This document shows positions 5,082-28,055 of a DNA stretch of 62,859 nucleotides, one piece after another. The notes below the pieces were generated by a model. That model did not search any database, was not told the origin of the DNA, and worked only from the letters and a program-made list of their open reading frames with translations. The position numbers and the translations under genes are program-made. Source of the stretch: an uncultured Saprospiraceae bacterium (GTDB taxonomy: Bacteria; Bacteroidota; Bacteroidia; Chitinophagales; Saprospiraceae); assembly GCA_964533785.1 (NCBI GenBank), contig CAZHNG010000001.1:29770-92628 (forward strand), written 5' to 3'. How positions within the stretch are numbered: the stretch's first letter is position 1; the number at the start of each line of letters is the position of its first letter.

Positions 5082-6026
5082 ATGATACTACCAATTACCG
5101 CTACTTTTCTCGATGAGATCAGTCACGATATTCCCCACCAAAATTGGGGTAAGAAAGAGTGGGATACCGATTTTCAATACATGCAGCAACTGGGGATCGA
5201 TTGCGTTGTACTCATTCGCTGTGGGTATAAAAAATGGATAACCTATCCCTCCCAAGTACTGCAAAAAGAAGAACAGACTTATTTGCCCCCCTTTGATTTA
5301 GTGGACCTTTTCCTAAAGCTTGCCGATAAATACGGTATGGCTTTTTACTTTGGGTTATACGATTCCGGAAAATATTGGTGGGAGCAGGGAGACTACCAGA
5401 AGGAGATCGATATAAATTTAAAGATCATTGATGAAGTATGGGCCCAATACGGCTCTTATCCTGCATTTAAAGGCTGGTATCTTTGCCAGGAGGTCAGCCG
5501 TAAGACGGGTAAGATCATAGATTTATACGCCAGGCTGGGACAACATTGTAAAGCAGTTTCCAATGGTTTACCTACCTTCATCTCCCCTTATATTGACGGG
5601 AAAAAAGCACTGCTTTCCAATCAAGTTGCGCTAAACAAAACAGACGCCGTAAGCGTAGAACAACACGAAAAAGAATGGAATGAAATTCTGGATGGTATCA
5701 AATCATCCGTAGACATTCTGGCTTTTCAGGATGGTCACGTGGATTATGATCAGTTAGCGGAATATTTTAGTATCAATAAAAAATTAGCCGATCGCCACGG
5801 TATGCAATGCTGGACGAATGCAGAGTCCTTCGATCGCGATATGCCGATCAAATTTTTACCGATAAAATGGGAGAAGCTGCGCTTAAAATTAAAAGCGGCT
5901 CACGAAGCGGGTCTGGAGAAAGCCATTACTTTCGAATTCTCTCATTTTATGAGTCCGCAGTCAGCTTATGTGCAGGCGCATCATTTGTTCAATCGGTATA
6001 TGGAAACGATAAGTGGAATATCCTGA
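5082..6026 (+). CDS. DUF4434-like protein (glycoside-hydrolase-like TIM barrel)
   Basis: 314 aa. The N-terminus PITATFLDEISHDIPHQNWG matches my memory of DUF4434 proteins that neighbour AGE epimerases. Confidence 0.6.
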   Translation: MILPITATFLDEISHDIPHQNWGKKEWDTDFQYMQQLGIDCVVLIRCGYKKWITYPSQVLQKEEQTYLPPFDLVDLFLKLADKYGMAFYFGLYDSGKYWWEQGDYQKEIDINLKIIDEVWAQYGSYPAFKGWYLCQEVSRKTGKIIDLYARLGQHCKAVSNGLPTFISPYIDGKKALLSNQVALNKTDAVSVEQHEKEWNEILDGIKSSVDILAFQDGHVDYDQLAEYFSINKKLADRHGMQCWTNAESFDRDMPIKFLPIKWEKLRLKLKAAHEAGLEKAITFEFSHFMSPQSAYVQAHHLFNRYMETISGIS

Positions 6027-6030
6027 ATTT

Positions 6031-6125
6031 TAGATACCAGATGCCACCTGCCGGCCATACTGGCTCAGTAGGCGGGGATATCAGATGCAAGATGTATTGT
6101 CCCTTTAACTTAGGGGTAGTTTTAC
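6031..6125. repeat. Mosaic repeat: heptads, family B GC-rich core, and an inverted partial family A end
   Basis: ataccagatgcc heptads. The core ccacctgccggcc...taggcgggga is shared with 15247-15301. agatgtattgtccctttaacttagggg matches the reverse complement of the family A 3' end. Confidence 0.6.
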
Positions 6126-6153
6126 TCGATTTAATGTTTAATAACCTTTAGCT

Positions 6154-6229
6154 GTGGTTATGTGGTTATACAAAATACTCCCCCAATTGATCCCCACATA
6201 ACTTTATAACTTTATAACCTTATAACCAC
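6154..6229. repeat. Inverted repeat with tandem ATAAC(T/C)TT octamers
   Basis: gtggttatgtggttata (6154-6170) faces cacataactttataactttataaccttataaccac (6195-6229). Confidence 0.7.
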
Positions 6230-6428
6230 CTAAAACTTAAATAGAACCGCCCCACGTTTAAAAGCCAATACAGTCAGACATTATAGATTGGCCAGAAAGT
6301 CTCGATTTGGTAATTCCCAACAATCTAACAAAGCTTAAAACATTGAATATCAAAAACATAAAATATTTACCCATAACTCAATACTTTTAATTAAAAATAA
6401 CAAAGTAATATTAATTAACCTCAGTATT

Positions 6429-7598
6429 ATGCCATTTCAATCCTACGCTACTCAATATAAAACGGCTCTATTGGAAAATGTCCTCCCTTTCTGGCTCAAA
6501 AACTCGAAGGATGAGGAGAACGGTGGCTACTTCACCTGTTTATTAAGAGATGGCCAAGTGTTTGACAGAGATAAGTTCATCTGGTTACAGGCCCGCCAAG
6601 TTTGGACCTTTGCCATGTTGTTCAACCGTTTGGAGGCCAGACCAGAATGGCTTGAATTTGCATTACACGGTGCCCGTTTTCTGCAAAAACACGGTAGAGA
6701 TAAGCAAGGAAACTGGTATTTTTCCCTCGATCAAAAAGGACAACCTTTGATTCAGCCCTACAATATTTTCTCGGATTGCTTCGCCACGATGGCATTTGGA
6801 CAATTGTACCTGGCCACACAAGAGAAAACCTTCGCCCAAATTGCTGTTGATACCTTTCACAACATTCTCAGACGGCAAAATAACCCTAAGGGCCAATACA
6901 ATAAATTGGTACCCGGTACCAGGGCTTTGAAGAACTTTGCCCTCCCCATGATTTTGTGCAATCTTTGTTTAGAAATCGAACCACTTTTGGATTCATCCTT
7001 AGTCGAAAAGACGATTCATAACTGTATTCAGGAGGTAATGGAAGTGTTCTACGATGCTTCAACCGGACTTACCTTGGAAAATGTTACCCCAGGCGGGCAG
7101 TTTTCCGATTCTTTTGAAGGTCGGTTGCTCAATCCGGGACATGCGATAGAAGCCATGTGGTTCATCATGGATCTGGGTATTCGCAATAAGGACCAGGCTT
7201 TAGTAGATCTTGCCACCCAAAGGATGCTCAACATGTTGGAATTTGGCTGGGATGAAAAACACGGCGGCATCTTTTACTTTATGGACCTGAAAGGCCACCC
7301 TACTCAACAACTAGAATGGGATCAAAAGTTGTGGTGGGTTCACTTGGAAACTTTACTGGCGCTGTTGAAAGGTTATTCATTGACAAAAAGTCAAGCCTGT
7401 TGGGATTGGTTCGAAAAAGTACACCACTATGCCTGGTCTGCCTTTCACGATCCGGAATACGGCGAATGGTTTGGCTATTGCAACCGTCAGGGTGAAGTAT
7501 TACTACCACTGAAAGGTGGGAAGTGGAAAGGGTGCTTTCACGTTCCGCGTGCTTTTTTTAATTGTTGGCAAATATTAGAATCTCTCCCCCAACCTTAA
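6429..7598 (+). CDS. AGE family epimerase/isomerase (N-acylglucosamine 2-epimerase-like)
   Basis: 389 aa with (alpha/alpha)6-barrel AGE hallmarks (LPFWLKNSKDEENGGYF, NPGHAIEAMWF, WWVHLE, KGCFHVPR). Confidence 0.85.
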   Translation: MPFQSYATQYKTALLENVLPFWLKNSKDEENGGYFTCLLRDGQVFDRDKFIWLQARQVWTFAMLFNRLEARPEWLEFALHGARFLQKHGRDKQGNWYFSLDQKGQPLIQPYNIFSDCFATMAFGQLYLATQEKTFAQIAVDTFHNILRRQNNPKGQYNKLVPGTRALKNFALPMILCNLCLEIEPLLDSSLVEKTIHNCIQEVMEVFYDASTGLTLENVTPGGQFSDSFEGRLLNPGHAIEAMWFIMDLGIRNKDQALVDLATQRMLNMLEFGWDEKHGGIFYFMDLKGHPTQQLEWDQKLWWVHLETLLALLKGYSLTKSQACWDWFEKVHHYAWSAFHDPEYGEWFGYCNRQGEVLLPLKGGKWKGCFHVPRAFFNCWQILESLPQP

Positions 7599-13025: not shown

Positions 13026-13403
13026 TCATTTTGAAACAATAATATCCGGATTTACTTCCAGTAATTCGTCTACTAAAGAATCTCTATCTTTTATAGTGAC
13101 CTTAGCTTTAAGAGTAGAGTTGTAAAAAACAATCATCGTATCATCGTCTTTCAATTTAATTTCATCTATGTTTAGAATATAGTATTCTGTACTTTGAATT
13201 CCACCAGAGTATTTCACTAAATTTTTTCCCATAACTTTATAAAAAGAATTCTCCAATACGAAAGGGATAAAGAACAATGGGAATATGGTTATTGCTGCAA
13301 TGATCCAGTATAACAAAAACCCTTCAAATAGAAATAAAACGCATAATACAACTACTAGAAATATATTAAAATTCTTATGGGAGGCTATGTATTTTTTTTT
13401 CAT
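13026..13403 (-). CDS. Small membrane protein, two TM helices plus a beta-rich (possibly bacterial PH-like) tail
   Basis: ATG at 13403 (MKKKYIASHKNF). Two hydrophobic helices are followed by KVMGKNLVKYSGGIQSTEYYILNIDEIKL. AT-rich. I recognise no family with certainty. Confidence 0.5.
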   Translation of the reverse strand: MKKKYIASHKNFNIFLVVVLCVLFLFEGFLLYWIIAAITIFPLFFIPFVLENSFYKVMGKNLVKYSGGIQSTEYYILNIDEIKLKDDDTMIVFYNSTLKAKVTIKDRDSLVDELLEVNPDIIVSK

Positions 13404-13574
13404 TTTCAAAACCTTCAGCAATTTCTAGTTTGAGAATTCAATTGTTAGTGACTTAAGTTTCGCAGGAGATTAAACCACTGAAAAAGAGTAAAAAACACAT
13501 TGAAATAATTTTAATAAAAAAGCGTAATTCCTTATATTACAACTACTTAGACCCTAAAGGTAATTACGCTAAAA

Positions 13575-14303: not shown

Positions 14304-15026
14304 ATGGATATTGAAAGAATAAAATTTCAACTAGCAAAAGGCAATCTTAAGTCTGCTATTACAGATTTATTGAGCATTGCTGATAAGTATTTATTAACAT
14401 TTAACGATGAAATTCTACTGATATCCTCGAGGTATTATACAATTGAACGAGAGAAAGTTAGAAACGTAATTTCAAAGGAAAATTATTTTTTAGAATTGAA
14501 TTCAATTTCGAATGACATACTCCTAGTACTCGGATATTTGGAGGAACTTGATGAAGTCAAATTAAAGAATATTTCAAGGCAAAGTATTAAAGAAGAGCTT
14601 GATAAATTATTGGAAGATTATGAAGATTGCCGTAAAATTAAGAGCACTGCTACTAGGTTAAGGATGAAAAACAATCTTAGTCACTTGATTTCACAAAAAA
14701 TCATTCAATACCCAAAAATAGTTAATGAATACGTAAACAATCCAACAGATGGGTTCATTTGTGGCGTTTGTAAGAAAATTCAACGTGTACCTGATTTTGA
14801 GGACTTAGATATTCTGGAAAAAATAGCACCAGAGACCAACAGTAAATTTGTAAAAGGAAACATAGCAAGTGCGATTACTGAATTAATATATTTCAGTAAG
14901 GTAAGAATAGGGGATGATGTAAGGATATCTAAAATACTAAACTTGCTAAAAGTTGGTTCTGATAAAACTGTGCAAAAAAATATTGAAAGAGCAGAGGCTG
15001 CTCTTGAGTATTTATTGAATAAGTAA
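14304..15026 (+). CDS. Hypothetical protein, N-terminal effector-associated-like helical module plus an uncharacterised helical C-terminal region
   Basis: The first 80 aa or so read LAKGNLKSAITDLLSIADKY...DEILLISSRYYTIEREKVRNVISKENYFLELNSISNDILLVLGYL. This is the module commonly seen at N-termini of NACHT/CHAT/TIR conflict proteins. The remaining 160 aa or so has no family I can name. Confidence 0.55.
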   Translation: MDIERIKFQLAKGNLKSAITDLLSIADKYLLTFNDEILLISSRYYTIEREKVRNVISKENYFLELNSISNDILLVLGYLEELDEVKLKNISRQSIKEELDKLLEDYEDCRKIKSTATRLRMKNNLSHLISQKIIQYPKIVNEYVNNPTDGFICGVCKKIQRVPDFEDLDILEKIAPETNSKFVKGNIASAITELIYFSKVRIGDDVRISKILNLLKVGSDKTVQKNIERAEAALEYLLNK

Positions 15027-15358: not shown

Positions 15359-15646
15359 AAAACAAAACTTATTATTGTCCATCCACTTACTTGAAAAGCC
15401 TATAGAAACTTCCGCAATCTACTGCTCTGTTTATATTATTATTTCACCAAATTAGATCACCTATTCCAATGTTGATCCTTTGGTCAAGTTTGTTTAGCCT
15501 TATATTGCACAAAGCATTGCAAAGCAAAACAGGCTAAGCTCCGTCAAGCCTAACCTGTAAAGTTTTGAATTTCATTTCTTAACGACTGCTAAAAGATTTT
15601 AAACTATGTAAGTTATTTTAAGCCAGTCATTTAGCTTTTTAATTTG

Positions 15647-15956
15647 TGATCCCGGCAGGACTCGAACCTGCAACCTGCTGATTAGCTTACCATCTACAGC
15701 TTTCGCTGCTTCCGATATTATCGGAATTTGTGGTCTGGACTATCTCTTCACCATTTCAGGTGTGCCACGTATAGTCTCTACGGATCCCTTTTCAGGTTTC
15801 CTCGGGATTGCCTTATCCGCAAGAGGCGAACTTAGGTTTCCCCGATATAGTGGCATCCACTTTACAGGTTTTGTTTCCCTGTAAAGGCTCCTAATTTTAG
15901 TTCTCTTTTGAACTATGCTTAAAGTCAGCTGCTCTATCCAGTTGAGCTACGAGACC
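15647..15956 (-). tRNA. tRNA-Arg (anticodon UCU) interrupted in the anticodon loop by a group I intron
   Basis: 5' exon (15956-15922): GGTCTCGTAGCTCAACTGGATAGAGCAGCTGACTT. 3' exon (15685-15647): CTAATCAGCAGGTTGCAGGTTCGAGTCCTGCCGGGATCA. Joined, they form a 74-nt cloverleaf with anticodon loop CTTCTAA. The D and T arms resemble bacterial tRNA-Arg(UCU). No CCA is encoded. Confidence 0.85.
15686..15921 (-). ncRNA. Group I intron (IC3-like), 236 nt, no ORF
   Basis: The core strings parallel the Azoarcus tRNA-Ile and cyanobacterial tRNA-Leu intron cores: AAGTGGATGCC, GGGGAAACCTAAG, TAAGGCAATCCCGAGG, CCGTAGAGACTATACGTGGCACACCTGAAATGG. The 5' exon ends in U and the intron ends in G. Candidate guide sequence GAG lies in TTAGGAGCC. 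Confidence 0.8.
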
Positions 15957-16051
15957 ATTTTTCTTAGCGACTGCAAATTTATTACTTTTATACCTTACAA
16001 GCAACTTTTCACCAAAGTCATTGTTCAACTTTCGTCTGAAAAAAATAGCAC

Positions 16052-16726
16052 ATGAGTAACGTCCGTATTGAAGAAAGCTGGAAAACCGTTTTAAGAGACG
16101 AATTTCACCAACCCTATTTCCAGAGCCTTGCCACCTTTCTAAAGAACGAAAAAACAGCCGGTAAGGTGATCTACCCTCCTGGGTCTTTGATCTTTAATGC
16201 CTTTGATTCTACGCCTTTTGAGGAGGTGAAAGTGGTTATTCTTGGGCAGGATCCATATCACAATCCAGGTGAAGCGATGGGGCTTTCTTTTTCCGTTCCA
16301 AAGAGCAAAAGAATTCCACCCTCTCTCGTGAATATTTACAAAGAATTGAAGGCGGACCTGGGTATTCCTATCCCTAAACACGGTGATCTTACCAAGTGGG
16401 CGGAACAAGGCGTTTTCCTACTGAATGCTATGTTGACGGTTGAACACAAAAAAGCGGGCGCTCACCGGAAAATCGGCTGGCAAGACTTTACGAATGCTGT
16501 GATCAAAAAGCTTTCTGATGAAAGAGAAAACCTTGTTTTTTTGCTGTGGGGGAATTTTGCCCGTAAGAAAAAAGCCCTTATCGACAATTCCCGCCATTTG
16601 GTACTGGAAGCAGCCCACCCTTCTCCGTTGGCCGGTAATGCTTTCAGCGGTTGCCATCATTTTTCCAAGGCCAATGAGTATTTAGTGCAATATGGAATAG
16701 AGCCCATCGACTGGAGTATCGATTAA
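16052..16726 (+). CDS. ung: Uracil-DNA glycosylase
   Basis: Family 1 UDG motifs GQDPYH and HPSPLA. 224 aa. Confidence 0.95.
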   Translation: MSNVRIEESWKTVLRDEFHQPYFQSLATFLKNEKTAGKVIYPPGSLIFNAFDSTPFEEVKVVILGQDPYHNPGEAMGLSFSVPKSKRIPPSLVNIYKELKADLGIPIPKHGDLTKWAEQGVFLLNAMLTVEHKKAGAHRKIGWQDFTNAVIKKLSDERENLVFLLWGNFARKKKALIDNSRHLVLEAAHPSPLAGNAFSGCHHFSKANEYLVQYGIEPIDWSID

Positions 16727-17793: not shown

Positions 17794-18372
17794 TCAACCG
17801 TAATACGGCATTAGGAGAAAATAACAGATCGGGCCTGTAACAGCTACGTATAACCACAATGGGAACACCCATTTAGCCATCCTACGGTGCTTTTCAATCT
17901 GATTCGTGTATGCCCGGATAAAAGTAAACAGGATAAAAGGCAAAGAAGCTGCCGCCAGAACAATATGGCTGATCAGTAAAACTAAGTATATCGTTCTTGA
18001 AGAGCCCACTTCCAACCGCTCGGTTTCAGACAATATACCATCATGGTTAATATCACCGTAGATAGTGGCAGGATTGGTAAAATGATATACTACGTAGGCT
18101 AAAAGAAAAAGTACCGAAAAAATCAATGCGGAGAACATCATCCGTTGATGCGCCTGAATTTTCTTTTGCTTGATAAAAACAAATCCAATGATCAATGCTA
18201 TTGCCGTAAGCGCATTAAGTGCGGAGTAAAAAGGGGGCAAAAAGCTAAAATCCCATCCTGCCGGCAGATCCAGCTTTACGCTGCGCATTAACCCTACCAG
18301 GAATAAAACAATTGCAGTTACTACCCAGGTAGCAATGTTCAATTGTTTTGCTAGTTTTAGACTCTTTTCCAT
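17794..18372 (-). CDS. DUF420 (CtaM-like) membrane protein
   Basis: 192 aa multi-helix membrane protein. Its position next to the SCO-like and cox genes fits DUF420/CtaM family context. Confidence 0.7.
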   Translation of the reverse strand: MEKSLKLAKQLNIATWVVTAIVLFLVGLMRSVKLDLPAGWDFSFLPPFYSALNALTAIALIIGFVFIKQKKIQAHQRMMFSALIFSVLFLLAYVVYHFTNPATIYGDINHDGILSETERLEVGSSRTIYLVLLISHIVLAAASLPFILFTFIRAYTNQIEKHRRMAKWVFPLWLYVAVTGPICYFLLMPYYG

Positions 18373-18374
18373 AG

Positions 18375-19010
18375 TTATTTTTCAGTCTCTCTTTTTACAA
18401 CGGGGTCTTCCGTTCCCTTTCTTGGTGTTAATACAGACACGTGTTCCACCAGGCGTTTCATATCTTCTGGAGAATTGACATAACAATTCCTTACATTCAA
18501 CGTAGGATCAACAACAACGAAATCCATTTGTTGCCCGGTACAATGGTAAGATTTCACCTTGATATTCTGCAATTGAGCTTCGCCCACTTGCAGAAAGGTG
18601 CAGTAAGGATTATTTTGCAAATATTTTTCGTGGTATTGCTCAATATTCGTACGATCATTGGTATTTATGAGAAAATGCACCTTATCGGTTTTCCCGAATT
18701 GATCCACCAGTTTATTCAAGTTCTCTCCGATCTCTACAGCGTAGGGGCTATCAAGCCGGTCCAAAAAACTCGTTACTACTACACTACCTTTCAAGTCCGC
18801 CAGTGCAAAACTTTCTTTCTCAAACGGCACAAAAGCATATCCACCAACTACCCCCAGATCACTCAGGTCATTGAGAATTTCCAACCGGTAATTGTAACCT
18901 TTTTGTAAATAGTACCAGGATCCCAGCGGTAAACCAACCAGAATTAAGGATAAGGCCACTAATTGGAAGATAAACCTGCGTGGATTCCTGCCTTGTTTTT
19001 CATTACTCAT
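18375..19010 (-). CDS. SCO1/SenC-like thioredoxin-fold protein lacking an evident CxxxC copper site
   Basis: N-terminal TM anchor and SCO-like length and context. Where CxxxC is expected, the sequence reads VVVTSFLDRLDSPYAV. Confidence 0.55.
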   Translation of the reverse strand: MSNEKQGRNPRRFIFQLVALSLILVGLPLGSWYYLQKGYNYRLEILNDLSDLGVVGGYAFVPFEKESFALADLKGSVVVTSFLDRLDSPYAVEIGENLNKLVDQFGKTDKVHFLINTNDRTNIEQYHEKYLQNNPYCTFLQVGEAQLQNIKVKSYHCTGQQMDFVVVDPTLNVRNCYVNSPEDMKRLVEHVSVLTPRKGTEDPVVKRETEK

Positions 19011-19132
19011 TGTAAAACAATATTATTATAGAAGATGCCATTTTCTTCTCCACTATAAATTGATTTATAAAACAAAAGGCCAAGAAATTTGGTTCCTGGC
19101 CTTTTGTAATGGTAGTATCATCTTTTTTGACC

Positions 19133-19561
19133 TTAGCTGTTTTGAATGTCCTCACCTATTCTGTATACCTCATTCATTCCGGTGGCATTCTGCTCTTCAA
19201 CTGGTATTTCATTTTTTTGTTTGATCAAGGCTCTTCTTGCTTTCCAAGAATCTCCTTCCTGGAAAAAGGCGATAATGGCCCAAATAAGTAAAACCGTTGG
19301 TAATAATACGCTAAGGGCCAATCCTTTCACCTCGTAGCGCATGTGCATAAACTCATAAATGATGAAATAGGCTTTATAAAGAGAAAGAGCAATCAAAACA
19401 ACTCCTACAATGTAGGCTACAGCAGTGATTTCATCGACTCCGCCAATAATATATCCTTTACCAAAAAGAGAAAATAGTACCTCAACGATGGTTACAACTG
19501 CAAGCAGGCCGAGGCCAAAAAATACTTTTTTCTTTGATTCTTCGTATGAAAGATGTGCCAT
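19133..19561 (-). CDS. Cytochrome c oxidase subunit IV-like small membrane protein
   Basis: 142 aa, three hydrophobic helices, immediately downstream of the subunit III genes. Confidence 0.65.
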   Translation of the reverse strand: MAHLSYEESKKKVFFGLGLLAVVTIVEVLFSLFGKGYIIGGVDEITAVAYIVGVVLIALSLYKAYFIIYEFMHMRYEVKGLALSVLLPTVLLIWAIIAFFQEGDSWKARRALIKQKNEIPVEEQNATGMNEVYRIGEDIQNS

Positions 19562-19661
19562 GATTTTTATTTTTTAGACGCTAGATTTTAGCCCCTAGAG
19601 GGTATGGGGATGATAGATAATAGTGTAAAATACAAAACTATTGAATTAGGTTTTACACTAT

Positions 19662-20606
19662 CTATAATAAATAGAATACCAGGAATACGAATACCCAAAC
19701 CAAGTCTACGAAGTGCCAGTAAAGCCCTATTTTTTCTACCATTTCGTAGCCATTACGACGAGCAACGTAGACACCACTGGCTGCGTTGATCATGATAATG
19801 AATAAGAATACAACGCCGGAAAATACGTGAAAACCGTGAAAACCTGTAATAAAGAAGAAAAGTGCACCGAAGGCTTTAGGACCAAAATCAGTCCTTGCTA
19901 CTGCTGCCTCACCGGTTTCCTCGTCGACGTATTGATAACGTCTGAAGATCCATCCTTCTTCAGTGGTACTATGATCACCTTCCTGAGCGACAGTCTCGGC
20001 AGCAGCTTCTTCTCCACCGTGCCCTTCTCCGTGTCCGCCGGCTTTATGGATTAAGTAAGTATCTCCTGCTTTAAAGCTTTCTCTGGTCTCTCCGGATTCG
20101 TAGGGATGTCCATGTTCATCATCAAGATATTCCCCATCTACCACGTGTGTACCAAAAGGGTTTGTCGTAACCGTCATGTGCTCCGTACCGATCAAATTAG
20201 TCCATTCCCATGCCTGGCAGCCCAAGAAGCCGGCTCCACCAAGGATAGTTAATAACATCCAGAAAACAACGCCGTTTTTATTCTCACGATGTCCTTCCTG
20301 TACCGCTCTTACCATCGTAACCGAACTAATGATCAAAAGGAAAGACATAATGGTAACAAATATCAACGGTGCCCCGTGAACACCAAAAGGAGCCGTTGAA
20401 AACACCACATCCGGTACCGGCCAGGTGAAGCTACTAAAGCGCAAAGCACCATATGCGATTAAGAAACCGGCAAAAGTAAATGCGTCTGACAGCAGGAAGT
20501 ACCACATCATCAACTTACCATAACTGGCTTTGAACGGGGACTTTGCTCCTGACCATGCATTGTCATCGATAACGTCTTGTTCTATTACAGGATCTGTTGA
20601 TACCAT
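19662..20606 (-). CDS. ctaE: Heme-copper oxidase subunit III with a large His/Glu/Gly-rich loop insertion
   Basis: Subunit III signatures (WYFLLSDAFTFAGF, FFITGFHGFHVFSGV, YWHFVDLVWVFVF). An acidic, His-rich insert of about 90 aa lies between helices. Confidence 0.85.
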   Translation of the reverse strand: MVSTDPVIEQDVIDDNAWSGAKSPFKASYGKLMMWYFLLSDAFTFAGFLIAYGALRFSSFTWPVPDVVFSTAPFGVHGAPLIFVTIMSFLLIISSVTMVRAVQEGHRENKNGVVFWMLLTILGGAGFLGCQAWEWTNLIGTEHMTVTTNPFGTHVVDGEYLDDEHGHPYESGETRESFKAGDTYLIHKAGGHGEGHGGEEAAAETVAQEGDHSTTEEGWIFRRYQYVDEETGEAAVARTDFGPKAFGALFFFITGFHGFHVFSGVVFLFIIMINAASGVYVARRNGYEMVEKIGLYWHFVDLVWVFVFLVFYLL

Positions 20607-20653
20607 TCGTTTGTTATTTTATTTGCTGTTTACAGTTCCAAAATTAATATAAC

Positions 20654-21232
20654 CTATGATTGTATCACAAAAAATACGATTAAATATATCCAGAGAAAAT
20701 CAACGAAATGCCAGTAAGTAAGCGTAAGCTCAAATCTTCTTTTCCGGACATCCGTTACTTTAAATTTTAGCGCAAAAGCGTGGATCATAGCTACTATTAA
20801 CCCGACTATACCGCCTAGTACATGGGCAGCGTGGACCCAGGAGATCGCATAAACAAAATCCCCCGAAGGATTTGTCCGCAAAGGAATACCCATCTCCTTC
20901 AGTGCCGTCCATCCCTGGTATTGCATAATCAGGAAGGCGATCCCCAACGCGAAGCCGGCAAAAAGAAATAACTTATACCGTAGTTCCAGCCCTTTTTTAA
21001 AATTAACATAAGAAGTGTGGAGCGCAACACTACTCAGCAATATTGCGATAGTACTCATAAAGAAAACATCCGGAATTGGAAATTCATACCAATTACCCGC
21101 CGCTCTTCTTACAATATAAGCACTGGTAAGCCCTGAAAATAACATGAGCATACTCGCGCATGCTACCCACATCGCAAATTTTTGAGGATGTATTTTGCTC
21201 CTGTTGTAAGAATTTGCCACTGTCGTCGCCAT
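20654..21232 (-). CDS. Cytochrome c oxidase subunit III family protein (short form)
   Basis: 192 aa ending in TLTYWHFVDFLWIYLIVFF, typical of the subunit III fold. Confidence 0.8.
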   Translation of the reverse strand: MATTVANSYNRSKIHPQKFAMWVACASMLMLFSGLTSAYIVRRAAGNWYEFPIPDVFFMSTIAILLSSVALHTSYVNFKKGLELRYKLFLFAGFALGIAFLIMQYQGWTALKEMGIPLRTNPSGDFVYAISWVHAAHVLGGIVGLIVAMIHAFALKFKVTDVRKRRFELTLTYWHFVDFLWIYLIVFFVIQS

Positions 21233-21277
21233 TTTTATTATTTAACGGTTAGTAAAATCCGTTGGCTTTTCTGTCTG

Positions 21278-22228
21278 TTAAAGTAGTTTATCAACCCATA
21301 ATATTATGAGCACCAAAGGTATATAAAAGAAGGAAGTAAACATCAGCCGTAAAGCAGTTGCTCTGTTGAATTGCACATAAAACTTCCAGCTCTGCAAGGC
21401 GTATATCGTAGAAACCACAAAGACCAGTACAGTCGCCCCTATGCTTGTAATGCCAACAATATAAGGGATCCAGCTCGTGACCATTAAGAATAAAGCATAA
21501 AGTAAAGACTGTGTGCCTATCACTCTGCTGGGAGAATCATTCTTACTGGGCAAAAACTTATAACCTGCTTTGAGATAGTCTTTATGTCCCAACCAGCCGA
21601 TTGACCAGAAATGAGGGAACTGCCAAAGAAACTGGATCGTGAATAACAATAACTCTAAAACGGTCAATTCCCCTTGGGCAGCAACACTCCCGATCAATAC
21701 CGGCATAGCTCCCGCAATCGCTCCAACTGTAACAGCTGCTGGTGTCACCCGCTTTAAAGGCGTGTACAAAAAGGCATAAATAACAAGTGCCAACATACCA
21801 AAAAAAGCAGTCCAGGGATTAAATAACGCCAGAAGGGTGATCCCGATCATACTCATAAAACCTGCTGCTACCACGCCTTCGGAAATAGACATCCTTCCCG
21901 CCGCTAGTGGACGATCAGCTGTGCGCTGCATAAGCTTATCATAATCTTTCTCTAAAACCTGGTTGAGTGCATTGGAAGCACCCGTTACCAAAAAACCGCC
22001 GATCGCAAGCGTCAAAACGTCCAGCCACGCAACTAACGAAGGTGAAGCGATTAAAAAAGCAAGAACAGATGAGAATACAACCGTTAAGTTGAGCCTCAGC
22101 TTAACCAACTGCTTGTAGTCGCTTACTTTTACTGCAAAGACACTTTGCTTTGCTTCAATGCTCGTATTCGTATTCAATGCCTTCTTGTATTTGTAAGCAA
22201 GTGCGTAAGCACCGTTTGGTGTACGCAC
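21278..22228 (-). CDS. ctaB: Protoheme IX farnesyltransferase (heme O synthase)
   Basis: UbiA-family motifs NQVLEKDYDKLMQRTADRPL. The ORF start is a GTG, so the true start is uncertain. Confidence 0.9.
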   Translation of the reverse strand: MRTPNGAYALAYKYKKALNTNTSIEAKQSVFAVKVSDYKQLVKLRLNLTVVFSSVLAFLIASPSLVAWLDVLTLAIGGFLVTGASNALNQVLEKDYDKLMQRTADRPLAAGRMSISEGVVAAGFMSMIGITLLALFNPWTAFFGMLALVIYAFLYTPLKRVTPAAVTVGAIAGAMPVLIGSVAAQGELTVLELLLFTIQFLWQFPHFWSIGWLGHKDYLKAGYKFLPSKNDSPSRVIGTQSLLYALFLMVTSWIPYIVGITSIGATVLVFVVSTIYALQSWKFYVQFNRATALRLMFTSFFYIPLVLIILWVDKLL

Positions 22229-22285
22229 CTGATTACATTTTTATAATGAAATACTTTTCAATTTGTTATAATAATTGAACAAACC

Positions 22286-24136
22286 TTAGTGCCCCGGACT
22301 CTCATCATCCCCTACTGGTTTCACCTGAGGAATAAACTCTTTACCATCTTTTCCGTAGTCATAAGCCCAGCGTTGTACTGATGGTAGATTACCTTCCCAG
22401 TTTCCGTGTCCGGCGTTAATTGGAGTCGTCCATTCCAGGGTATTAGCTCCCCAAGGATTACGCACCGTCATTTTTTTGCCGTACCAAATGCTGTAGAAGA
22501 AATTAATAACGAATAATATCTGCAAAGCAAATACAATCGCCGCGGCAATCGTAATAAACTGGTTCATGCCGTCGAAGTGACCGAATGTTGTAAAGCTGTC
22601 AAAACGGTAGTAGCGTCTTGGTACTCCAGCCATCCCAAGGTAGTGCATAGGCCAGAAAATAGCATAAGCACCAACAAGCGTTCCCCAGAAGTGTATCTTC
22701 CCGAGTGTCTCATTCATAAATCTACCGTACATTTTCGGGAACCAGTGATAAATACCCGCGAACATTCCGAAGAATGCGGCAATACCCATCACGATGTGGA
22801 AGTGAGCAACCACAAAGTAAGTATCATGCATTTGTATATCAATGGCTGAGTTACCTAAGAAAATACCCGTCAAACCACCGGAAATAAACATCGATACAAA
22901 CCCAATACCAAACAAGCTTGCGGAGTTAAACCGGATACTACCTCCGTATAGGGTTGCAATCCAATTAAACACTTTCACCGCTGAAGGAACAGCGATAATC
23001 AATGTGAAAATCACAAAGAAGTTAGAAATGAATGGATTTACACCCGACATGAACATATGGTGTGCCCACACGATGAAAGACAAGAAAGCAATTGCCAGAA
23101 TGGAATAAACCATCGCTTTATATCCAAAGATAGGCTTACGTGAATGTACGGATAATACTTCTGATACGATCCCCATCGCCGGCAGGATAATGATATATAC
23201 CTCCGGGTGTCCGAGGAACCAGAATAAGTGTTGATAAAGTATCGGACTACCACCCACGTGATCCAATGCCTGACCACCAATAAAAATTTCACTCAGATAG
23301 AAACTTGTTCCTAAGCTGCGGTCAAACATAACTAATAGGAGCCCCGAAACTAATACCGGAAATGACAGAAGACCGATTATAGCCGTAATGAAAAAAGACC
23401 AGATAGTTAGGGGCAGTCGCCACATACTCATACCCTTAGTCCGCAGGTTCAATACTGTTGTGATGTAATTAATACCTCCCAACAGTACCGAGACAACAAA
23501 CAAGACCAAACTTACCACCCACAAAGTCATACCGGCAGCCGAACCTGATGAAGCCTGCGGTAGCGCACTCAGCGGAGGATAGGCCGTCCATCCACCACTA
23601 AACGGTCCCGTACTTAGGAAGAGAGAAATGAACATTACAATGCCTGCCAGGAAAAAGAACCAATAGGATAGCATATTCAGAAAAGGAGATGCCATATCCC
23701 TTGCACCAACCTGAAGAGGAATCAACAAATTACTGAAAGTACCACTCAATCCTGCTGTTAATACGAAGAACACCAAAATAGTACCATGCATTGTGACTAA
23801 TGCATAGTAAAATTGTGGGTCCAATGTACCTACACCATCGTTTATGGTAATCCACTTACCTAGTAATGGTTTTATCCATGCCATATCGCCGTCAGGGAAA
23901 CCAAGCTGTAATCTAAAAATGATAGACATTGCTGCCCCAATGATCGCCCAAAACATCCCGGTAATTAGAAATTGCTTCGCAATGATCTTGTGATCCTGAC
24001 TGAAGATATAAGTATTAATAAAGTTAGATTGATACTTATCACCATGGTGATGATCATGAAAATGGTCATCAAAACCATGCTGTTCTATCAGAACATCTTC
24101 TTCTGTTTTAGTCTGTGGTGTTTTTATATCAGCCAT
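22286..24136 (-). CDS. ctaD: Cytochrome c oxidase subunit I
   Basis: Canonical motifs WFLGHPEVYIIILP, HHMF and VAHFHIVM. 616 aa. Confidence 0.95.
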   Translation of the reverse strand: MADIKTPQTKTEEDVLIEQHGFDDHFHDHHHGDKYQSNFINTYIFSQDHKIIAKQFLITGMFWAIIGAAMSIIFRLQLGFPDGDMAWIKPLLGKWITINDGVGTLDPQFYYALVTMHGTILVFFVLTAGLSGTFSNLLIPLQVGARDMASPFLNMLSYWFFFLAGIVMFISLFLSTGPFSGGWTAYPPLSALPQASSGSAAGMTLWVVSLVLFVVSVLLGGINYITTVLNLRTKGMSMWRLPLTIWSFFITAIIGLLSFPVLVSGLLLVMFDRSLGTSFYLSEIFIGGQALDHVGGSPILYQHLFWFLGHPEVYIIILPAMGIVSEVLSVHSRKPIFGYKAMVYSILAIAFLSFIVWAHHMFMSGVNPFISNFFVIFTLIIAVPSAVKVFNWIATLYGGSIRFNSASLFGIGFVSMFISGGLTGIFLGNSAIDIQMHDTYFVVAHFHIVMGIAAFFGMFAGIYHWFPKMYGRFMNETLGKIHFWGTLVGAYAIFWPMHYLGMAGVPRRYYRFDSFTTFGHFDGMNQFITIAAAIVFALQILFVINFFYSIWYGKKMTVRNPWGANTLEWTTPINAGHGNWEGNLPSVQRWAYDYGKDGKEFIPQVKPVGDDESPGH

Positions 24137-24176
24137 TAGTCATTATATTTATCAACACTCCCAACTGGGAAAATAA

Positions 24177-25670
24177 TTATTTCGTTAAAATTCTAAATTC
24201 TGTTCTACGGTTCATAGCCCTTCCTTCTTCTGTTTCATTAGTATCAACTGGTCGCGCTGAACCGTATCCTACGTACCTCAACCTTGATTCGTCAATACCT
24301 TTATCTGCCAGGTACTGGTAAACGGCTGCTGCGCGTTTTTGAGATAATTCAACATTGGATGATGCATCACCGCTATTGTCCGTATGTCCTGCTAATTCAA
24401 CAGTCATACTGGAATTTGTTGTCATTAAATCGTAAAGATTGTCTAATTCGTAGCGAGACAAATCGGTCAGGTTAGCAGAACCCGTTTCAAAGAACACATA
24501 GTTGAAGCGCAATGAGGTATCTTGCGGACTATCCATCTGCAGAACTCCTTGCACGGCCTCGTTGAACTCTTCCTTACGCTCTTCAACCTCAAAATCCAGT
24601 ATTTCATCTTTAAGAGGATCGTAATCTTTGCCCCTCACATTCGAAAGATAGTAAGAACTTTGACTACTCAACCAATCTTCGTACTCGTCTTCCTCGACAA
24701 TGCGAACTAACTTCTTCATACTGTAGTGCCCTCTACCACATAGCTCAGCACAAGCTAACTCAAAATTGAAGGTTTCCCACAATTGTAAATCGGGCTGTTC
24801 CGGATCAGGCTGCTGGTATTCAGGATACTTTCTTAACTCTTGGCGGTATTCTTCCGTTGTTTTGGAAGGAGTGAAAACAAAATAAGTTGGTAACCCGGGA
24901 ATGGCATCCATTTTCACCCTGAAGTGTGGTAAATAGAAGTTATGAAGTACATCTTTCGCCGTGATACGAACCCGAACCTTTTTTCCTTTGGGTAGTACAA
25001 TTTCGTTGACGTGGATGTCGTCTATGTTCTTTTTATCTTCCCAATTTTGTCCGAGTGGATTGGTCGCAGGATCGATCAAACGAAAATCTTTTTCCCCGAT
25101 TAATCCATCAGGACCAGGATAACGTAACTCCCAAGCAAACTGGTACCCTGTTGCTTCAATTTCAATGTGCTCTTCTCCTGGTTTAATATCCGCCATTACC
25201 TCGTTCCAGGCATCTAGACCACCTATGACCAGGTAAGTCATAACAATGGCAGGGATACCCGTCCAAATGTATTCTACTAGATTATTGTGCGGTAGAAAAA
25301 CAGCCTTACTACCGCGCTTAGCCCGGTACTTATAGGCAAAATAGAAAAGTGCGATTTGGGTCAGGACGAACACAAAACCAGTACACAATAAAGTAATGTG
25401 AAATAAGCTGTCCAGGCTTCCTCCGTGCTCTGATGCAGCAGCGTGAGGGCCATATCCCAGCATGTAGTTTTTATAGTAGTAACCTGAGGCGAAAACGCCA
25501 ATCAAAAAGAGAACCATAAAGACCATGGAAAAAAGACCTGCACGATTATTAGCAATTTCTTGCATTTCTTCTTCACCTCTGATCTTACTGGCAAGCTCAG
25601 TTACTTTACCAATCTGTACTGCAACTATGGCAATCAGTATCAGACTTAATGTTATGAGTAATGCAGTCAT
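24177..25670 (-). CDS. ctaC: Cytochrome c oxidase subunit II fused to a C-terminal OmpA-like peptidoglycan-binding domain
   Basis: CuA ligands DVLHNF and CAELCGRGHYSM. The last 110 aa or so are OmpA_C-like: FETGSANLT...ELAGHTDNSGD...NVELSQKRAAAV..GYGSARPV...GRAMNRRTEFRI. No CxxCH motif. Confidence 0.85.
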   Translation of the reverse strand: MTALLITLSLILIAIVAVQIGKVTELASKIRGEEEMQEIANNRAGLFSMVFMVLFLIGVFASGYYYKNYMLGYGPHAAASEHGGSLDSLFHITLLCTGFVFVLTQIALFYFAYKYRAKRGSKAVFLPHNNLVEYIWTGIPAIVMTYLVIGGLDAWNEVMADIKPGEEHIEIEATGYQFAWELRYPGPDGLIGEKDFRLIDPATNPLGQNWEDKKNIDDIHVNEIVLPKGKKVRVRITAKDVLHNFYLPHFRVKMDAIPGLPTYFVFTPSKTTEEYRQELRKYPEYQQPDPEQPDLQLWETFNFELACAELCGRGHYSMKKLVRIVEEDEYEDWLSSQSSYYLSNVRGKDYDPLKDEILDFEVEERKEEFNEAVQGVLQMDSPQDTSLRFNYVFFETGSANLTDLSRYELDNLYDLMTTNSSMTVELAGHTDNSGDASSNVELSQKRAAAVYQYLADKGIDESRLRYVGYGSARPVDTNETEEGRAMNRRTEFRILTK

Positions 25671-25778
25671 TATTTATTTCTTGTTTCTATTATTTTTTAA
25701 TCTAAAATCCCTACAAAATTAAGGATCAATGTTTATTTCAGCTATACCACAAGGGCCTTCGACTTATTTAGAATCATT

Positions 25779-27065
25779 CTAATTAAAGGGCCAAACGCTG
25801 TGGTGTAAACTTTCCTTTAAGTATGGATCACGCTCTGCCAACAACGGAGCTTTGCTCATGCGCCAAAATACAAAGTACATGAAGAAAGCAAGAAAGCCAA
25901 GCATTGTTCCAATCTCCAATAATCCGGGAACGGAAAAACCAGCGACAAAACCTACCGCATGGCTAGCTGCCTCAGCAGCTCCGTGATCACCAGCGGCATG
26001 CTCCATGTGGCTCATGACTTCATGAGTAGTGTGGTAAACCCCCGGTTTGATCATCTGGAAAAAGTCCCACCAGTGACCAAAAAATACGACAATAGAAGCA
26101 AAAACCATCGTTCCGTATTTTCGCTTCGTATCATTACGCATTAGAATAAAGAAAGGGGCCGCAAAGTTCAATACTAAATTCGTATAGAACAGAACCGGAT
26201 AATTATCTATCCTGGTTTGAAAGTAAACGGTTTCCTCCCCTACATTTCCGTACCAGATCAACATATACTGTGAGAACCACAAATAGGTCCAGAAAATACT
26301 GATCGCAAACAGGTACTTTCCGAGGTCATGAAGGTGATTAGCCGTAACAACTTCTAAATAACCGAGTGACTTCAAATAAATAACCGTAATGATCGTCAAG
26401 GCCATAGCGGCTACAAACCAGCTTGCCCCCGTATACCAAGCGTAAAGCGTACTATACCAATGAGAATCGATGGACATTATCCACTGCCAGATCAAAGCAG
26501 CGCTCGCAAAACCTGCAATGGGTAAGAAAGCAGCCGCCCAAACCCGCATGGTATGGTGAAGACGGTAATCGTCGGTACCTTCGACATCCTCTTTGAGAGA
26601 TAATTGTCTTAATCTTATAGCAAACAAGATCCACACTCCCATTATGATTATCGTACCGAAGGTGTACCAACTTTTGTTTAAAAATGCAGACTTGTGCTGG
26701 AGAATCGGATCCTCCGCAACTGTCGCTGCATCGTTCCAGTGATACAAATGATGGCCGTGTGTCCAAAGACCAGCTGCCAAGACTAACAAAAGTAGGGCTC
26801 CTGGTATTAAAAACAAAGAATAAGCCTCCCACACCCGCTTCACTACCGTATGCCATCCTGACCATGCTGTTATAAAAGCAGATAGGATAAATAAAGAAAT
26901 AAAAGCTATTCCGGTAAAGAACACCGTATTGTGTAAATAATTGGACCAAAACCGGGAGTGGAGCGCATCATCTGTAAAGAAAGTAACTCCTAAGCATAAC
27001 AATCCCAGGATCATGAAAGCTAAGAGGACTGTCTTTTGTCTGGCTGTAAAGCTAAACTGGTTCAT
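25779..27065 (-). CDS. actF: Alternative complex III subunit ActF (quinol:cytochrome c oxidoreductase membrane subunit)
   Basis: Polytopic NrfD-like membrane protein positioned after ActE. ATG at 27065. Confidence 0.8.
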   Translation of the reverse strand: MNQFSFTARQKTVLLAFMILGLLCLGVTFFTDDALHSRFWSNYLHNTVFFTGIAFISLFILSAFITAWSGWHTVVKRVWEAYSLFLIPGALLLLVLAAGLWTHGHHLYHWNDAATVAEDPILQHKSAFLNKSWYTFGTIIIMGVWILFAIRLRQLSLKEDVEGTDDYRLHHTMRVWAAAFLPIAGFASAALIWQWIMSIDSHWYSTLYAWYTGASWFVAAMALTIITVIYLKSLGYLEVVTANHLHDLGKYLFAISIFWTYLWFSQYMLIWYGNVGEETVYFQTRIDNYPVLFYTNLVLNFAAPFFILMRNDTKRKYGTMVFASIVVFFGHWWDFFQMIKPGVYHTTHEVMSHMEHAAGDHGAAEAASHAVGFVAGFSVPGLLEIGTMLGFLAFFMYFVFWRMSKAPLLAERDPYLKESLHHSVWPFN

Positions 27066-27167
27066 CAAATATTGCTATTTATGAGATGGTGACAACACTC
27101 TAAAAAGTGCTGTCGAATTTATGTTTTTATTCTACGATCCAATGTAACCCGGATCACAAAAGAAAAA

Positions 27168-28055
27168 TTAGTGTTGAGATCCGGATCCATGATCATCCGA
27201 CTGATGATCACCTTCCGTAGTATTTTCGTGGGGAACTTCTTCAACGACGTTCTGCACAGCGGCGGTTTGCTTGATCATCGCCATAGGCGTACCGAAAGAT
27301 TCATTTAAAGTATTCACATTAGCATCGTACTCCGTTCCTGTTTCGTCGGCCTGCAATGCTCTGATGTAGTGGATCACATTCCATCTTTCTTCGTAGGATA
27401 ATTTATCTTTGTAAGCACCCATAACGTTCTTACCGTACATAATGGCGTGGTAATAACGTCCGTTTGAAGCGGTCAGCAAATCACCGATCAAGAAATTGGC
27501 AGGTTGTGCCGGATAAGCTGCGTTAGGATTGTCTTCACTTACGATATAACCGACACCATCCCCTTTCTCTCCGTGACAAATACCGCAAAAGATATCGTAC
27601 AGTTCCTTACCCTTGGCTAAGCCTTCTTCTGTAATGGGGAAAGGATTGTCGATCAATTCTTCCGTAGCACGAGTTCTTTCTTCCTCAGTATCTTCATAAT
27701 GATAAGGTACACTACCGTTTACGGGAACAGCAATTTCATTAACCGAACGCTCTCCACGTAAGGTAGCCATCATGGTTTCCGCCTGATTGGGATCAGTATG
27801 TCTTACACCAGCGTAACCCCGGGGGACAGTACCATGTACCGGTTCACCAGGAATGGATAAAGTTTTCAGATCAACTTTGCTATCCTCATCCCAGGTGTTC
27901 AAACCATATTTCGTGTACACGTTAGCCTCGTAGGCTATCGAATGAGCCATATCCGGCATATATTCACTTCCGGTGAAATTTCCTTCCGCCGGTGAACACG
28001 CATACAATGATAAAGCGAATAGAACCGCAACCAAATACTGCTTAATCTTTATCAT
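27168..28055 (-). CDS. actE: ACIII monoheme cytochrome c lipoprotein ActE
   Basis: Lipobox LYAC, single CGICHG heme site, His-rich C-terminal tail. Confidence 0.8.
   Translation of the reverse strand: MIKIKQYLVAVLFALSLYACSPAEGNFTGSEYMPDMAHSIAYEANVYTKYGLNTWDEDSKVDLKTLSIPGEPVHGTVPRGYAGVRHTDPNQAETMMATLRGERSVNEIAVPVNGSVPYHYEDTEEERTRATEELIDNPFPITEEGLAKGKELYDIFCGICHGEKGDGVGYIVSEDNPNAAYPAQPANFLIGDLLTASNGRYYHAIMYGKNVMGAYKDKLSYEERWNVIHYIRALQADETGTEYDANVNTLNESFGTPMAMIKQTAAVQNVVEEVPHENTTEGDHQSDDHGSGSQH

Follow-up and report, generated by a model that had tools for sequence, protein, structure and literature searches.

How can a bacterium decode the arginine codon AGA if the transfer RNA (tRNA) gene expected to serve it is broken in the middle of its anticodon? 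This question is raised by a 62,859-nt stretch of contig CAZHNG010000001.1 from an uncultured Saprospiraceae bacterium of the phylum Bacteroidota, hereafter called the window, in which two halves of a tRNA-Arg(UCU) gene are separated by 236 nt. A previous inspection of the letters alone, referred to below as the sequence-only reading, took the insert for a group I intron. Group I introns in bacterial tRNA genes are textbook cases, which are known from few hosts, namely the tRNAs Leu(UAA), fMet, Arg(CCU) and Ile(CAU) of cyanobacteria and proteobacteria. Our analysis shows that the feature is real: a group I intron of a known kind lies in the anticodon loop of tRNA-Arg(UCU), which extends the bacterial tRNA group I introns to a further host tRNA and a further phylum, while the mechanism itself is not new. 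We consider it very likely that the locus is a functional chromosomal tRNA-Arg(UCU) gene that carries a compact group I ribozyme of the tRNA-Leu(UAA) type, without an open reading frame (ORF), between U34 and C35. A literature search, which did not extend to most subscription journals, turned up no previous description of group I introns in tRNA-Arg(UCU) genes or in other tRNA genes of Bacteroidota.

The split gene encodes a canonical tRNA-Arg(UCU)

The gene lies on the minus strand, to which all coordinates of its exons and of the intron refer; the two exons and the 236-nt insert were re-extracted and checked. The 5' exon (35 nt, 15956-15922, GGTCTCGTAGCTCAACTGGATAGAGCAGCTGACTT) comprises the 5' strand of the acceptor stem, the D arm, the 5' strand of the anticodon stem and the loop residues C32, U33 and U34. 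It is followed by the intron, which contains no ORF (236 nt, 15921-15686, TAAGCATAG...GATGGTAAG), and by the 3' exon (39 nt, 15685-15647, CTAATCAGC...CGGGATCA; in full CTAATCAGCAGGTTGCAGGTTCGAGTCCTGCCGGGATCA), which provides C35, U36, A37 and A38, the 3' strand of the anticodon stem, the variable loop, the T arm, the 3' strand of the acceptor stem and the discriminator A; the CCA end is not encoded. The joined exons comprise 74 nt and are recognized by ARAGORN as a canonical tRNA-Arg(tct). If introns are allowed, the same program finds in the genomic sequence a tRNA-Arg(tct) with a 236-nt intron at 'gactt-Intron-ctaat', that is, between U34 and C35. This is the sole split of the anticodon loop that yields a 7-nt loop, a U in front of the insert and a G at its end. 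In the ligated product, GACUU is expected to be joined directly to CUAAUC (...GCUGACUU followed by CUAAUCAGC...), and the corresponding stretch of an intronless tRNA-Arg(UCU) gene would read ...GAGCAACTGACTTCTAATCAGTAGGTC....

The reconstructed molecule has the properties of a bacterial tRNA-Arg: a cloverleaf, the anticodon UCU, a short variable loop and the predicted identity elements for arginyl-tRNA synthetase, A20 and C35. The 3' exon starts with C35, and A20 is invariant in all 42 sequences of the alignment described below. The loop CUUCUAA, A20 and the GCAGG/CCTGC T stem, on which the sequence-only reading had based the identity of the tRNA, are all present. Its expectation that standard finders overlook the gene was also borne out: ARAGORN in its default mode reports 0 tRNAs across the 62.9-kb window, no tRNA besides the split gene is found there in either default or intron mode, and no Rfam family is reported in the window at the curated gathering thresholds. 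According to its authors, tRNAscan-SE 2.0 is not designed to detect group I introns (PMC8450103). AGA is the most frequent arginine codon in the long ORFs of the window (136 of 599, 22.7%), and the tRNA for this codon is invisible to default ARAGORN and to the curated thresholds of Rfam. This annotation blind spot may make the tRNA sets of such genomes look incomplete.

The same interrupted gene in other genomes and metagenomes

The same split gene was found in many other places, which speaks against a chance arrangement. A genome scan, in which one exact pattern made up of the P4/P5 strands and the start of P6 was run against a species-representative genome collection, returned 21 loci. Twenty of these stem from Bacteroidota metagenome-assembled genomes (MAGs) named Saprospiraceae, Lewinellaceae, Lewinella, Phaeodactylibacter, Haliscomenobacter or Chitinophagales, and one from a Patescibacteria MAG (L139), which is discussed further below. 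All 20 Bacteroidota loci contain the same 5' exon followed by an intron, and both exons are located on the contig in 18. In these 18 complete copies, the intron always follows U34 and ends in G; it is 228-299 nt long when it contains no ORF and 654-678 nt long when it does. The intron of the window, which is itself not among the loci of the scan, is 74-81% identical to the 18 copies at the same site.

A metagenome scan, for which the pattern consisted of the 3' half of P9b, the terminal G (omega-G) and the start of the 3' exon, yielded 45 contigs. Both exons could be resolved in 38 of them, 31 of which are distinct, and the host is tRNA-Arg(UCU) in every case. The exons are of several types, with acceptor strands such as GGTCCGG, GCGCCCG and GATTCCG, which indicates that the Arg(UCU) intron family is wider than Saprospiria. 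The pattern also matches two IMG/VR viral contigs, so that three narrow exact-match scans alone give a family of 20 Bacteroidota species genomes, 45 metagenome contigs and 2 viral contigs. On some metagenome contigs, the split tRNA-Arg(UCU) gene is part of a tRNA cluster, either Ser(GCU)-Pro(UGG)-Arg(UCU) or Pro(UGG)-Arg(UCU) (L145, L171; L154, L176, L186), which suggests that it occupies an ordinary chromosomal tRNA slot. No uninterrupted tRNA-Arg(UCU) junction was found in the fetched loci, which are short and uninformative on whole genomes.

Architecture of the intron

The insert can be folded into the complete set of helices of a small group I intron. P1 is formed by the last three bases of the 5' exon, CUU (15922-15924), and GAG (15890-15888). 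U34 (15922) is the U of the 5' splice site and forms the U.G wobble pair with G15890 that is typical of group I splice sites; the C-G, U-A and U.G pairs of P1 are invariant in 42 of 42 sequences. GAG is part of an internal guide, UUAG-GAG (15888-15894), whose other half, UUAG (15894-15891), forms the 4-bp helix P10 with CUAA of the 3' exon (15685-15682). The G-C pair of P10 is invariant, and 77.6% of all its cells pair in the 42-sequence alignment. Within the loop of P1, the minimum free energy (MFE) fold contains an additional hairpin, P1a (15898-15915, UAGUUC/GAACUA with the loop AAAAGA). The sequence-only reading had pointed to this hairpin as an extra element, and it is real, since hairpins of unrelated sequence are found at this position in 17 of the 18 genome relatives (the exception is L137); however, it is missing from several metagenome members of the family. 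P2 (15860-15886) consists of 9 bp, CUUUACAGG/CCUGUAAAG, with the loop GAAACAAAA, and is seen in the MFE fold as well as by covariation.

The catalytic core is formed by P3 to P8. The 5' strand of P3, UGCCAC (15850-15855), pairs with the 3' strand GUGGCA (15768-15763), as supported by covariation. P4 (UCGGGG/UCCCGA) surrounds P5 (CC/GG), an internal loop CCUAAG...UAAGG that resembles a tetraloop receptor, and P5a (UUCGC/GCGGA); this whole domain spans 15802-15845 and is found in the Rfam alignment and in the MFE fold. P6 is minimal, GG-AAA-CCU [GAAA] AGG-GAU-CC (15782-15801). The 5' strand of P7, GACUA(U) (15771-15776), pairs with (A)UAGUC (15743-15738), and its 3' strand, AUAGUC (15738-15743), is supported by covariation; P7 thereby forms a pseudoknot with P3. 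P7 is presumed to be the guanosine-binding helix, with G15776-C15738 as the putative G-binding pair by comparison with the Rfam consensus AGACUA. P8 (15749-15762, CACC/GGUG with the loop UGAAAU) pairs in 100% of the cells.

The 3' domain is a three-way arrangement (15689-15734), in which the P9 stem ACC(A)/(U)GGU encloses P9a (15726-15710, UUCCGAU/AUCGGAA) and P9b (15709-15696, GCAGC-GAAA-GCUGU), and the intron ends with omega-G (15686). When folded separately, the window copy and all 18 genome relatives have P9a hairpins of unrelated sequence. The GAAA loop of P9b and omega-G are both invariant in the 19 sequences of the genome set, for which the search pattern had left these positions free. 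The extended 3' domain that the sequence-only reading had singled out is therefore present as P9, P9a and P9b-GAAA, but it is not special, as the tRNA-Leu(UAA) intron has it in common nearly base for base. In the window copy, every helix is fully paired. The MFE fold of the 310-nt precursor reaches a z-score of -5.24 relative to 100 shuffled sequences and recovers the acceptor, D and T stems of the tRNA together with P1a, P2, P4, P5, P5a, P6, P8, P9, P9a and P9b. The insert also contains what the sequence-only reading had listed for it: three core strings, a U in front and a G as the last base, GAG as a guide and the hairpin tagttc/gaacta.

With E-value reporting (15400-16200), the Rfam group I intron model RF00028 is matched over its whole length (model positions 1-253) by 15931-15720 on the minus strand, with 39.7 bits and an E-value of 1.5e-8. 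The gathering score of this family is 50 bits. The sequence-only reading had named the lack of an RF00028 hit as grounds for abandoning the group I call, and a default run returns exactly this, since the score stays below 50 in spite of the full-length match. This yardstick is too strict, because the tRNA-Leu(UAA) intron of a Bradyrhizobium plasmid (L143) reaches only 45 bits itself, whereas introns at the same site of other tRNA-Arg(UCU) genes exceed the gathering score with 74.1 (L189), 61.9 (L188) and 51 bits (L181); the latter three share 65-67% identity with the intron of the window. The 19 Bacteroidota genome loci that were scanned all stay below 50 bits. The sub-threshold score of the window copy thus reflects a weak fit of the model to compact tRNA introns and is not counted as evidence against a group I intron. 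The assignment to subgroup IC3, which had also been proposed, is consistent with the helix inventory (P1, P2 and P3-P9, no P5abc) and with 65% identity to the tRNA-Leu(UAA) intron; it is a matter of resemblance and not of formal classification. Two further candidates were dropped: an archaeal-type intron because the bulge-helix-bulge motif is missing and the host is bacterial, and an IStron or transposon because neither an insertion sequence ORF nor repeats are present.

Covariation of intron and tRNA helices

Compensatory changes were assessed in two alignments, one of 19 sequences (the genome set) and one of 42 distinct sequences, which includes the window and 41 further copies. The pattern of the genome scan predetermined P4/P5, and that of the metagenome scan did so for P9b, omega-G and the first bases of the 3' exon; every one of these elements could vary in the other set. 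P1a and P9a were not alignable. In the smaller alignment, 96.2% of the cells pair, and 19 pairs show double changes, compared to 10.7 in column shuffles and 2-6 when the partners are slid against each other. In the larger alignment, 95.6% of the cells pair (84.8% in shuffles, 27.6-40.9% when slid), and double changes are found in 38 of 72 pairs, compared to 22.7 in shuffles and 12-15 in slid alignments. Within the intron, double changes affect 9 of 9 pairs of P2, 5 of 6 of P3, 2 of 6 of P4, 2 of 2 of P6, 2 of 6 of P7, 2 of 4 of P8, 3 of 5 of P9b and 1 of 4 of P9. The two P4 pairs were seen in the metagenome set, whose pattern excluded P4, and five pairs of P7 are supported, two of them by compensatory changes. 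The group I core, that is, P3-P8 including the P3/P7 pseudoknot, is thus kept by compensatory changes. In the tRNA, double changes are found in 6 of 7 pairs of the acceptor stem, 2 of 5 of the anticodon stem and 4 of 5 of the T stem. In the acceptor and anticodon stems, strands on opposite sides of the intron change in concert, an argument for selection acting on the spliced tRNA. The claim that the insert is a group I intron could hence be substantiated at two levels, by the full-length match to RF00028 and by the support for P1, P10 and P2-P9 in 42 homologs.

Relationship to known tRNA introns

The closest known kind is the tRNA-Leu(UAA) intron, for which a 204-nt group I intron in the tRNA-Leu(UAA) gene of Bradyrhizobium sp. 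ISRA443 plasmid NZ_CP094524.1 (about 6503-6792; L143 424-713) served as a representative. It is inserted at the same point after U34 ('gactt-Intron-aaaat'), in agreement with the position after the wobble base given in the sequence-only reading, and its 5' exon ends with GACUU as in the window, thereby offering the same CUU/GAG target for P1. The domain from the 3' strand of P7 via P9 to omega-G is nearly identical (AUAGUCCAGACCACAAA...GC(N)GYGAAAR(N)(N)GUAG..GGUAAG), and the two introns, which are both compact (204 and 236 nt), share 65% identity over approximately 190 aligned nucleotides. In contrast, the host of the window intron is Arg(UCU) rather than Leu, the P10 partner in the 3' exon is CUAA instead of AAAA, the window intron has an additional P1a and longer P2 and P5a helices, and its P6 reads GGAAACC...GGGAUCC and not GCCAAGCC. 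Furthermore, homing endonuclease genes are frequent in the Arg(UCU) family, which sets it apart from the classical Leu intron. The window intron is thus a relative and not a member of the tRNA-Leu(UAA) group. The shared GACUU target suggests that the intron may have moved from tRNA-Leu(UAA) to tRNA-Arg(UCU) by reverse splicing or illegitimate homing. Genes of the L143 type are also found on CP094621.1, NZ_CP094522.1 and NZ_CP094520.1; these are conjugative Bradyrhizobium plasmids, and the PLSDB gene table contains no feature for them.

A second point of comparison is the tRNA-fMet intron of Synechocystis PCC 6803, which has reportedly been described together with its homing endonuclease I-Ssp6803I (PDB 2OST). 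It is also a mobile group I intron of the anticodon loop, and its endonuclease belongs to the same family (PF11645) as that of the Arg(UCU) relatives, whereas the window copy does not contain an endonuclease gene. A relative is L139, the single locus of the genome scan outside the Bacteroidota (Patescibacteria MAG DASVCZ010000077.1, about 1000-1240, minus strand). This 202-nt group I intron scores 64.2 bits on RF00028 and is inserted after U33 of a tRNA with the anticodon CAU and a C1-A72 mismatch, which makes the tRNA initiator-like. The strings used as search pattern (GGGGAAACCUAAR...GGCAAUCCCGAGG), which cover P4 and the beginning of P6, are exactly the same in L139 as in the window intron; however, the tRNA and the site differ (after U33, in a CAU loop), the two introns are 58% identical, and the 3' domain of L139 is different and simpler.

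The tRNA-Arg(CCU) intron of Agrobacterium and other alpha-proteobacteria and the tRNA-Ile(CAU) intron of Azoarcus are reportedly small IC3 introns of the anticodon loop as well. Both are reported to be inserted 3' of the anticodon and not after the wobble base. One of them also resides in an arginine tRNA, but the isoacceptor (CCU) and the phylum differ from those of the window. A tmRNA (transfer-messenger RNA) survey described a Saprospiraceae-specific group I intron site in tmRNA genes at subsite 8 of the T-loop, the detection of which needed a dedicated model (PMC11915505). Compared by description, these introns and that of the window are found in the same bacterial family and in tRNA-like hosts, but the host gene and the loop, T-loop versus anticodon loop, are not the same.

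Homing endonucleases and viral copies

Many relatives of the window intron carry an ORF in the P6 loop. It is found in six genome loci and on many metagenome contigs, usually encodes 138 aa, starts with M(F/Y)xHHTKNKGDLG and terminates at the UAG of CCGUAGAGACUA, so that it extends into J6/7. The encoded proteins match Pfam PF11645 (PDDEXK_5) with E-values of 1e-33 to 1e-36 and PDB entry 2OST, which is I-Ssp6803I of the Synechocystis tRNA-fMet intron, with an E-value of 2e-4; no NCBIfam family is matched by the endonuclease of these relatives. According to a review, I-Ssp6803I homologs are generally cyanobacterial (PMC3384342). An endonuclease family of this type has apparently been retargeted from tRNA-fMet to tRNA-Arg.

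The P6 ORF is intact in 13 distinct metagenome copies and truncated or frameshifted in several others. Two contigs, L155 (Ga0209097_10061716) and L165 (Ga0116158_10019613), have identical exons as well as identical first 103 and last 104 intron bases and differ only in the P6 loop, which comprises 22 nt in the former and 431 nt with an intact 138-aa PD-(D/E)XK ORF in the latter. This pair is a clean presence/absence polymorphism of a homing endonuclease gene. Introns of intermediate length or with broken ORFs (L166, L146, L147/L162, L156, L158/L167, L161, L170, L186 and L124) appear to contain decaying remnants of the P6 endonuclease and to represent stages of gain, decay and loss. In a divergent subgroup (L184 and L179 from metagenomes, L190 from IMG/VR), a long insert with an antisense ORF is found in the P5 loop. 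The 174-aa antisense ORF of L184 matches Pfam HNH_2 with an E-value of 1e-9; the 124-aa antisense ORF of L179 has no Pfam match, and an HNH-like motif (CxxC..HH..CANCH) was recognized in it by eye only. An antisense HNH protein in P5 would be a second, unrelated type of endonuclease in the same intron family. An endonuclease ORF inside the intron, by which a mobile intron is recognized, is absent from the window copy: neither a homing endonuclease ORF nor a remnant was found in the window by tblastn with the endonuclease of the relatives, and the P6 loop consists of GAAA. The window copy is thus in the endonuclease-free state, having either lost the PD-(D/E)XK gene or never possessed it, which points to an intron that is immobile at the DNA level and inherited vertically.

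The two contigs classed as viral that match the metagenome pattern each contain a tRNA-Arg(UCU) gene with a group I intron. On L189 (IMGVR_UViG_3300047299_000161, 38 kb; 5772-6240), an intact tRNA-Leu(taa) gene adjoins a tRNA-Arg(tct) gene with a 203-nt intron, and the neighboring genes match phage families of thymidylate synthases, RNA ligases and endonucleases; these PHROG hits are in line with a viral origin. The second contig, L190, is IMGVR_UViG_3300043399_001092 (79 kb). A core pattern, GAAACCTAAR..GGCAAYSCYGAG, which represents P4/P5 of tRNA-type group I introns, matches at least 120 IMG/VR contigs (L001-L120) with many kinds of introns, indicating that introns with such a core are very common in phage genomes. 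A blastn search of the intron against phages gave one unannotated metagenomic phage record, in which 40% of the query was matched. In a review of 2014, all known phage introns were located in protein genes (PMC3984707).

Predicted splicing pathway and alternative explanations

The split gene is flanked by candidate expression signals. An octamer on the minus strand, TAAATTTG (15981-15974), conforms to TAnnTTTG; its end lies 17 nt upstream of the 5' end of the tRNA. TAnnTTTG is the -7 promoter consensus of Bacteroidota, and a match to TAnnTTT[G/A] is located at most 60 nt upstream of the gene in 13 of 19 cases, so TAAATTTG probably acts as a promoter element. Approximately 90 nt downstream of the tRNA 3' end, a pattern scan revealed a hairpin with a 13-bp stem followed by TTTGCTTTGC (15529-15558, minus strand), which is a putative terminator.

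Based on these elements, the following pathway can be proposed. A precursor of approximately 310 nt would be transcribed, probably from the TAAATTTG element, and its intron would fold into P1-P9. C32, U33 and U34 at the end of the 5' exon would pair with the guide GAG, whereby the U34.G pair would mark the 5' splice site, which is then expected to be attacked by a free guanosine bound in P7. Subsequently, the guide UUAG would hold CUAA of the 3' exon in P10, omega-G 15686 would enter the G site, and the 5' exon would attack the 3' splice site, leading to the ligated 74-nt tRNA and the released intron. RNase P, 3' trimming and CCA addition would finish a tRNA that reads AGA. The anticodon stem formed across the intron can coexist with P1 and P10 in this model and probably aids folding, by analogy to the Anabaena tRNA-Leu intron, and the GAAA loop of P9b probably docks on the CCUAAG/UAAGG motif in P5.

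Several points weigh against a functional, self-splicing gene. Splicing and the mature tRNA are deduced from DNA and not from RNA, and only 63 kb of the genome are visible, so that a second, uninterrupted tRNA-Arg(UCU) gene is possible elsewhere. The window copy stays below the gathering score of RF00028 with its 39.7 bits, P10 is conserved only in part beyond its G-C pair, and the sixth pair of P7 and the fourth pair of P9 are unsupported in the 42-sequence alignment. P4, P5 and most of P7 are nearly invariant and therefore provide little information alone, P4/P5 were partly fixed by the genome pattern and P9b, omega-G and the start of the 3' exon by the metagenome pattern, and the endonuclease inserts were trimmed before the alignment. 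One could imagine that the intron no longer splices and that the split gene is a pseudogene, whose work is done by an intact tRNA-Arg(UCU) elsewhere in the genome. The small part of the genome in view, which holds no other tRNA, the sub-gathering score and the lack of an endonuclease, which means that the intron is not maintained by homing, would all be in line with such a relic. We nevertheless consider this very unlikely: all helices of the window copy are fully paired, and over 42 copies, compensatory changes have preserved the helices of intron and tRNA, among them those with strands on opposite sides of the intron. P1 with its U.G pair and A20 are invariant in these 42 sequences, omega-G is invariant in the 19 sequences in which it was free to vary, the promoter-type box is retained upstream, and the split gene resides in a Ser(GCU)-Pro(UGG)-Arg(UCU) cluster on some metagenome contigs.

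It is also unlikely, though conceivable, that the insert is a group I intron which is not autonomous in the cell and needs a host protein, for instance a chaperone or a maturase-like factor, as is the case for some organellar introns. In favor of this, the intron has a small size and a fairly high A+U content (44% G+C), P1 includes no more than three base pairs with the exon, and self-splicing of the window intron is itself a prediction. Against this stands that the window intron encodes no protein and that the presumed stabilizing tetraloop and the receptor-like motif are conserved; moreover, in vitro self-splicing is established for related small tRNA introns, namely those of Anabaena (Leu), Azoarcus (Ile), Agrobacterium (Arg-CCU) and Synechocystis (fMet). 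That the insert is no group I intron at all, and instead a repeat, a group II or an archaeal-type intron, or that two tRNA-like halves are juxtaposed by chance, can be regarded as extremely improbable. This idea could appeal to the fact that the window contains no match above the gathering threshold of any Rfam family, but it is at odds with the RF00028 match over model positions 1-253 and with same-site homologs of up to 74 bits. The boundaries (a U before the intron and a G as its last base) and the guide pairings follow group I rules in 42 of 42 sequences, neither transposase or reverse transcriptase ORFs nor terminal repeats were found at the insert, ARAGORN rebuilds a canonical tRNA, and a chance juxtaposition would have to explain the same split gene in 18 complete genome copies and 31 distinct metagenome copies.

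Beyond the functional reading of this one gene, it is possible, although we regard it as somewhat doubtful, that the window intron belongs to an old and undescribed lineage of tRNA introns. In this scenario, a Leu(UAA)-type ribozyme would have moved to tRNA-Arg(UCU) via the shared GACUU. In a large part of the class Saprospiria and in other bacteria, the sole tRNA-Arg(UCU) gene would now contain it as a fixed element, and phages may carry it as well. The decoding of AGA, the commonest arginine codon of the window, would then depend on a ribozyme that requires guanosine, while the repeated gain and loss of a PD-(D/E)XK endonuclease gene in P6 and of an HNH gene in P5 would have kept it moving. 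The family offers small natural ribozymes with rich covariation as well as snapshots of endonuclease gain, decay and loss.

Genomic context

The gene content of the window, which includes a cytochrome oxidase cluster, UbiD and a giant protein with a type IX secretion system (T9SS) tail, fits a Bacteroidota chromosome rather than a mobile element. The gene next to the split tRNA (16052-16726) encodes a uracil-DNA glycosylase, and a homolog with 72-83% aa identity is also located within a few kb of the split tRNA in 7 genome relatives. A block of respiratory genes on the same strand as the tRNA (17794-34909, minus) encodes the cytochrome c oxidase subunits I, III and IV, a DUF420 protein and a 1087-aa 4Fe-4S protein, which places the tRNA in a core chromosomal context. 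On the plus strand, an ORF of 2894 aa (47308-55992) encodes a protein in which HYR and PKD domains are combined with the C-terminal sorting domain of the T9SS (Por_Secre_tail), a hallmark of Bacteroidota. On the other side of the tRNA, a 131-aa ORF on the minus strand (13026-13421), for which no Pfam match was found, adjoins a 240-aa ORF on the plus strand (14304-15026), which is located approximately 620 bp past the tRNA 3' end. The N-terminus of the latter matches Pfam EAD11 (Effector-associated domain 11; E 1.4e-11), and domains of the EAD type are usually found in proteins of conflict or defense systems.

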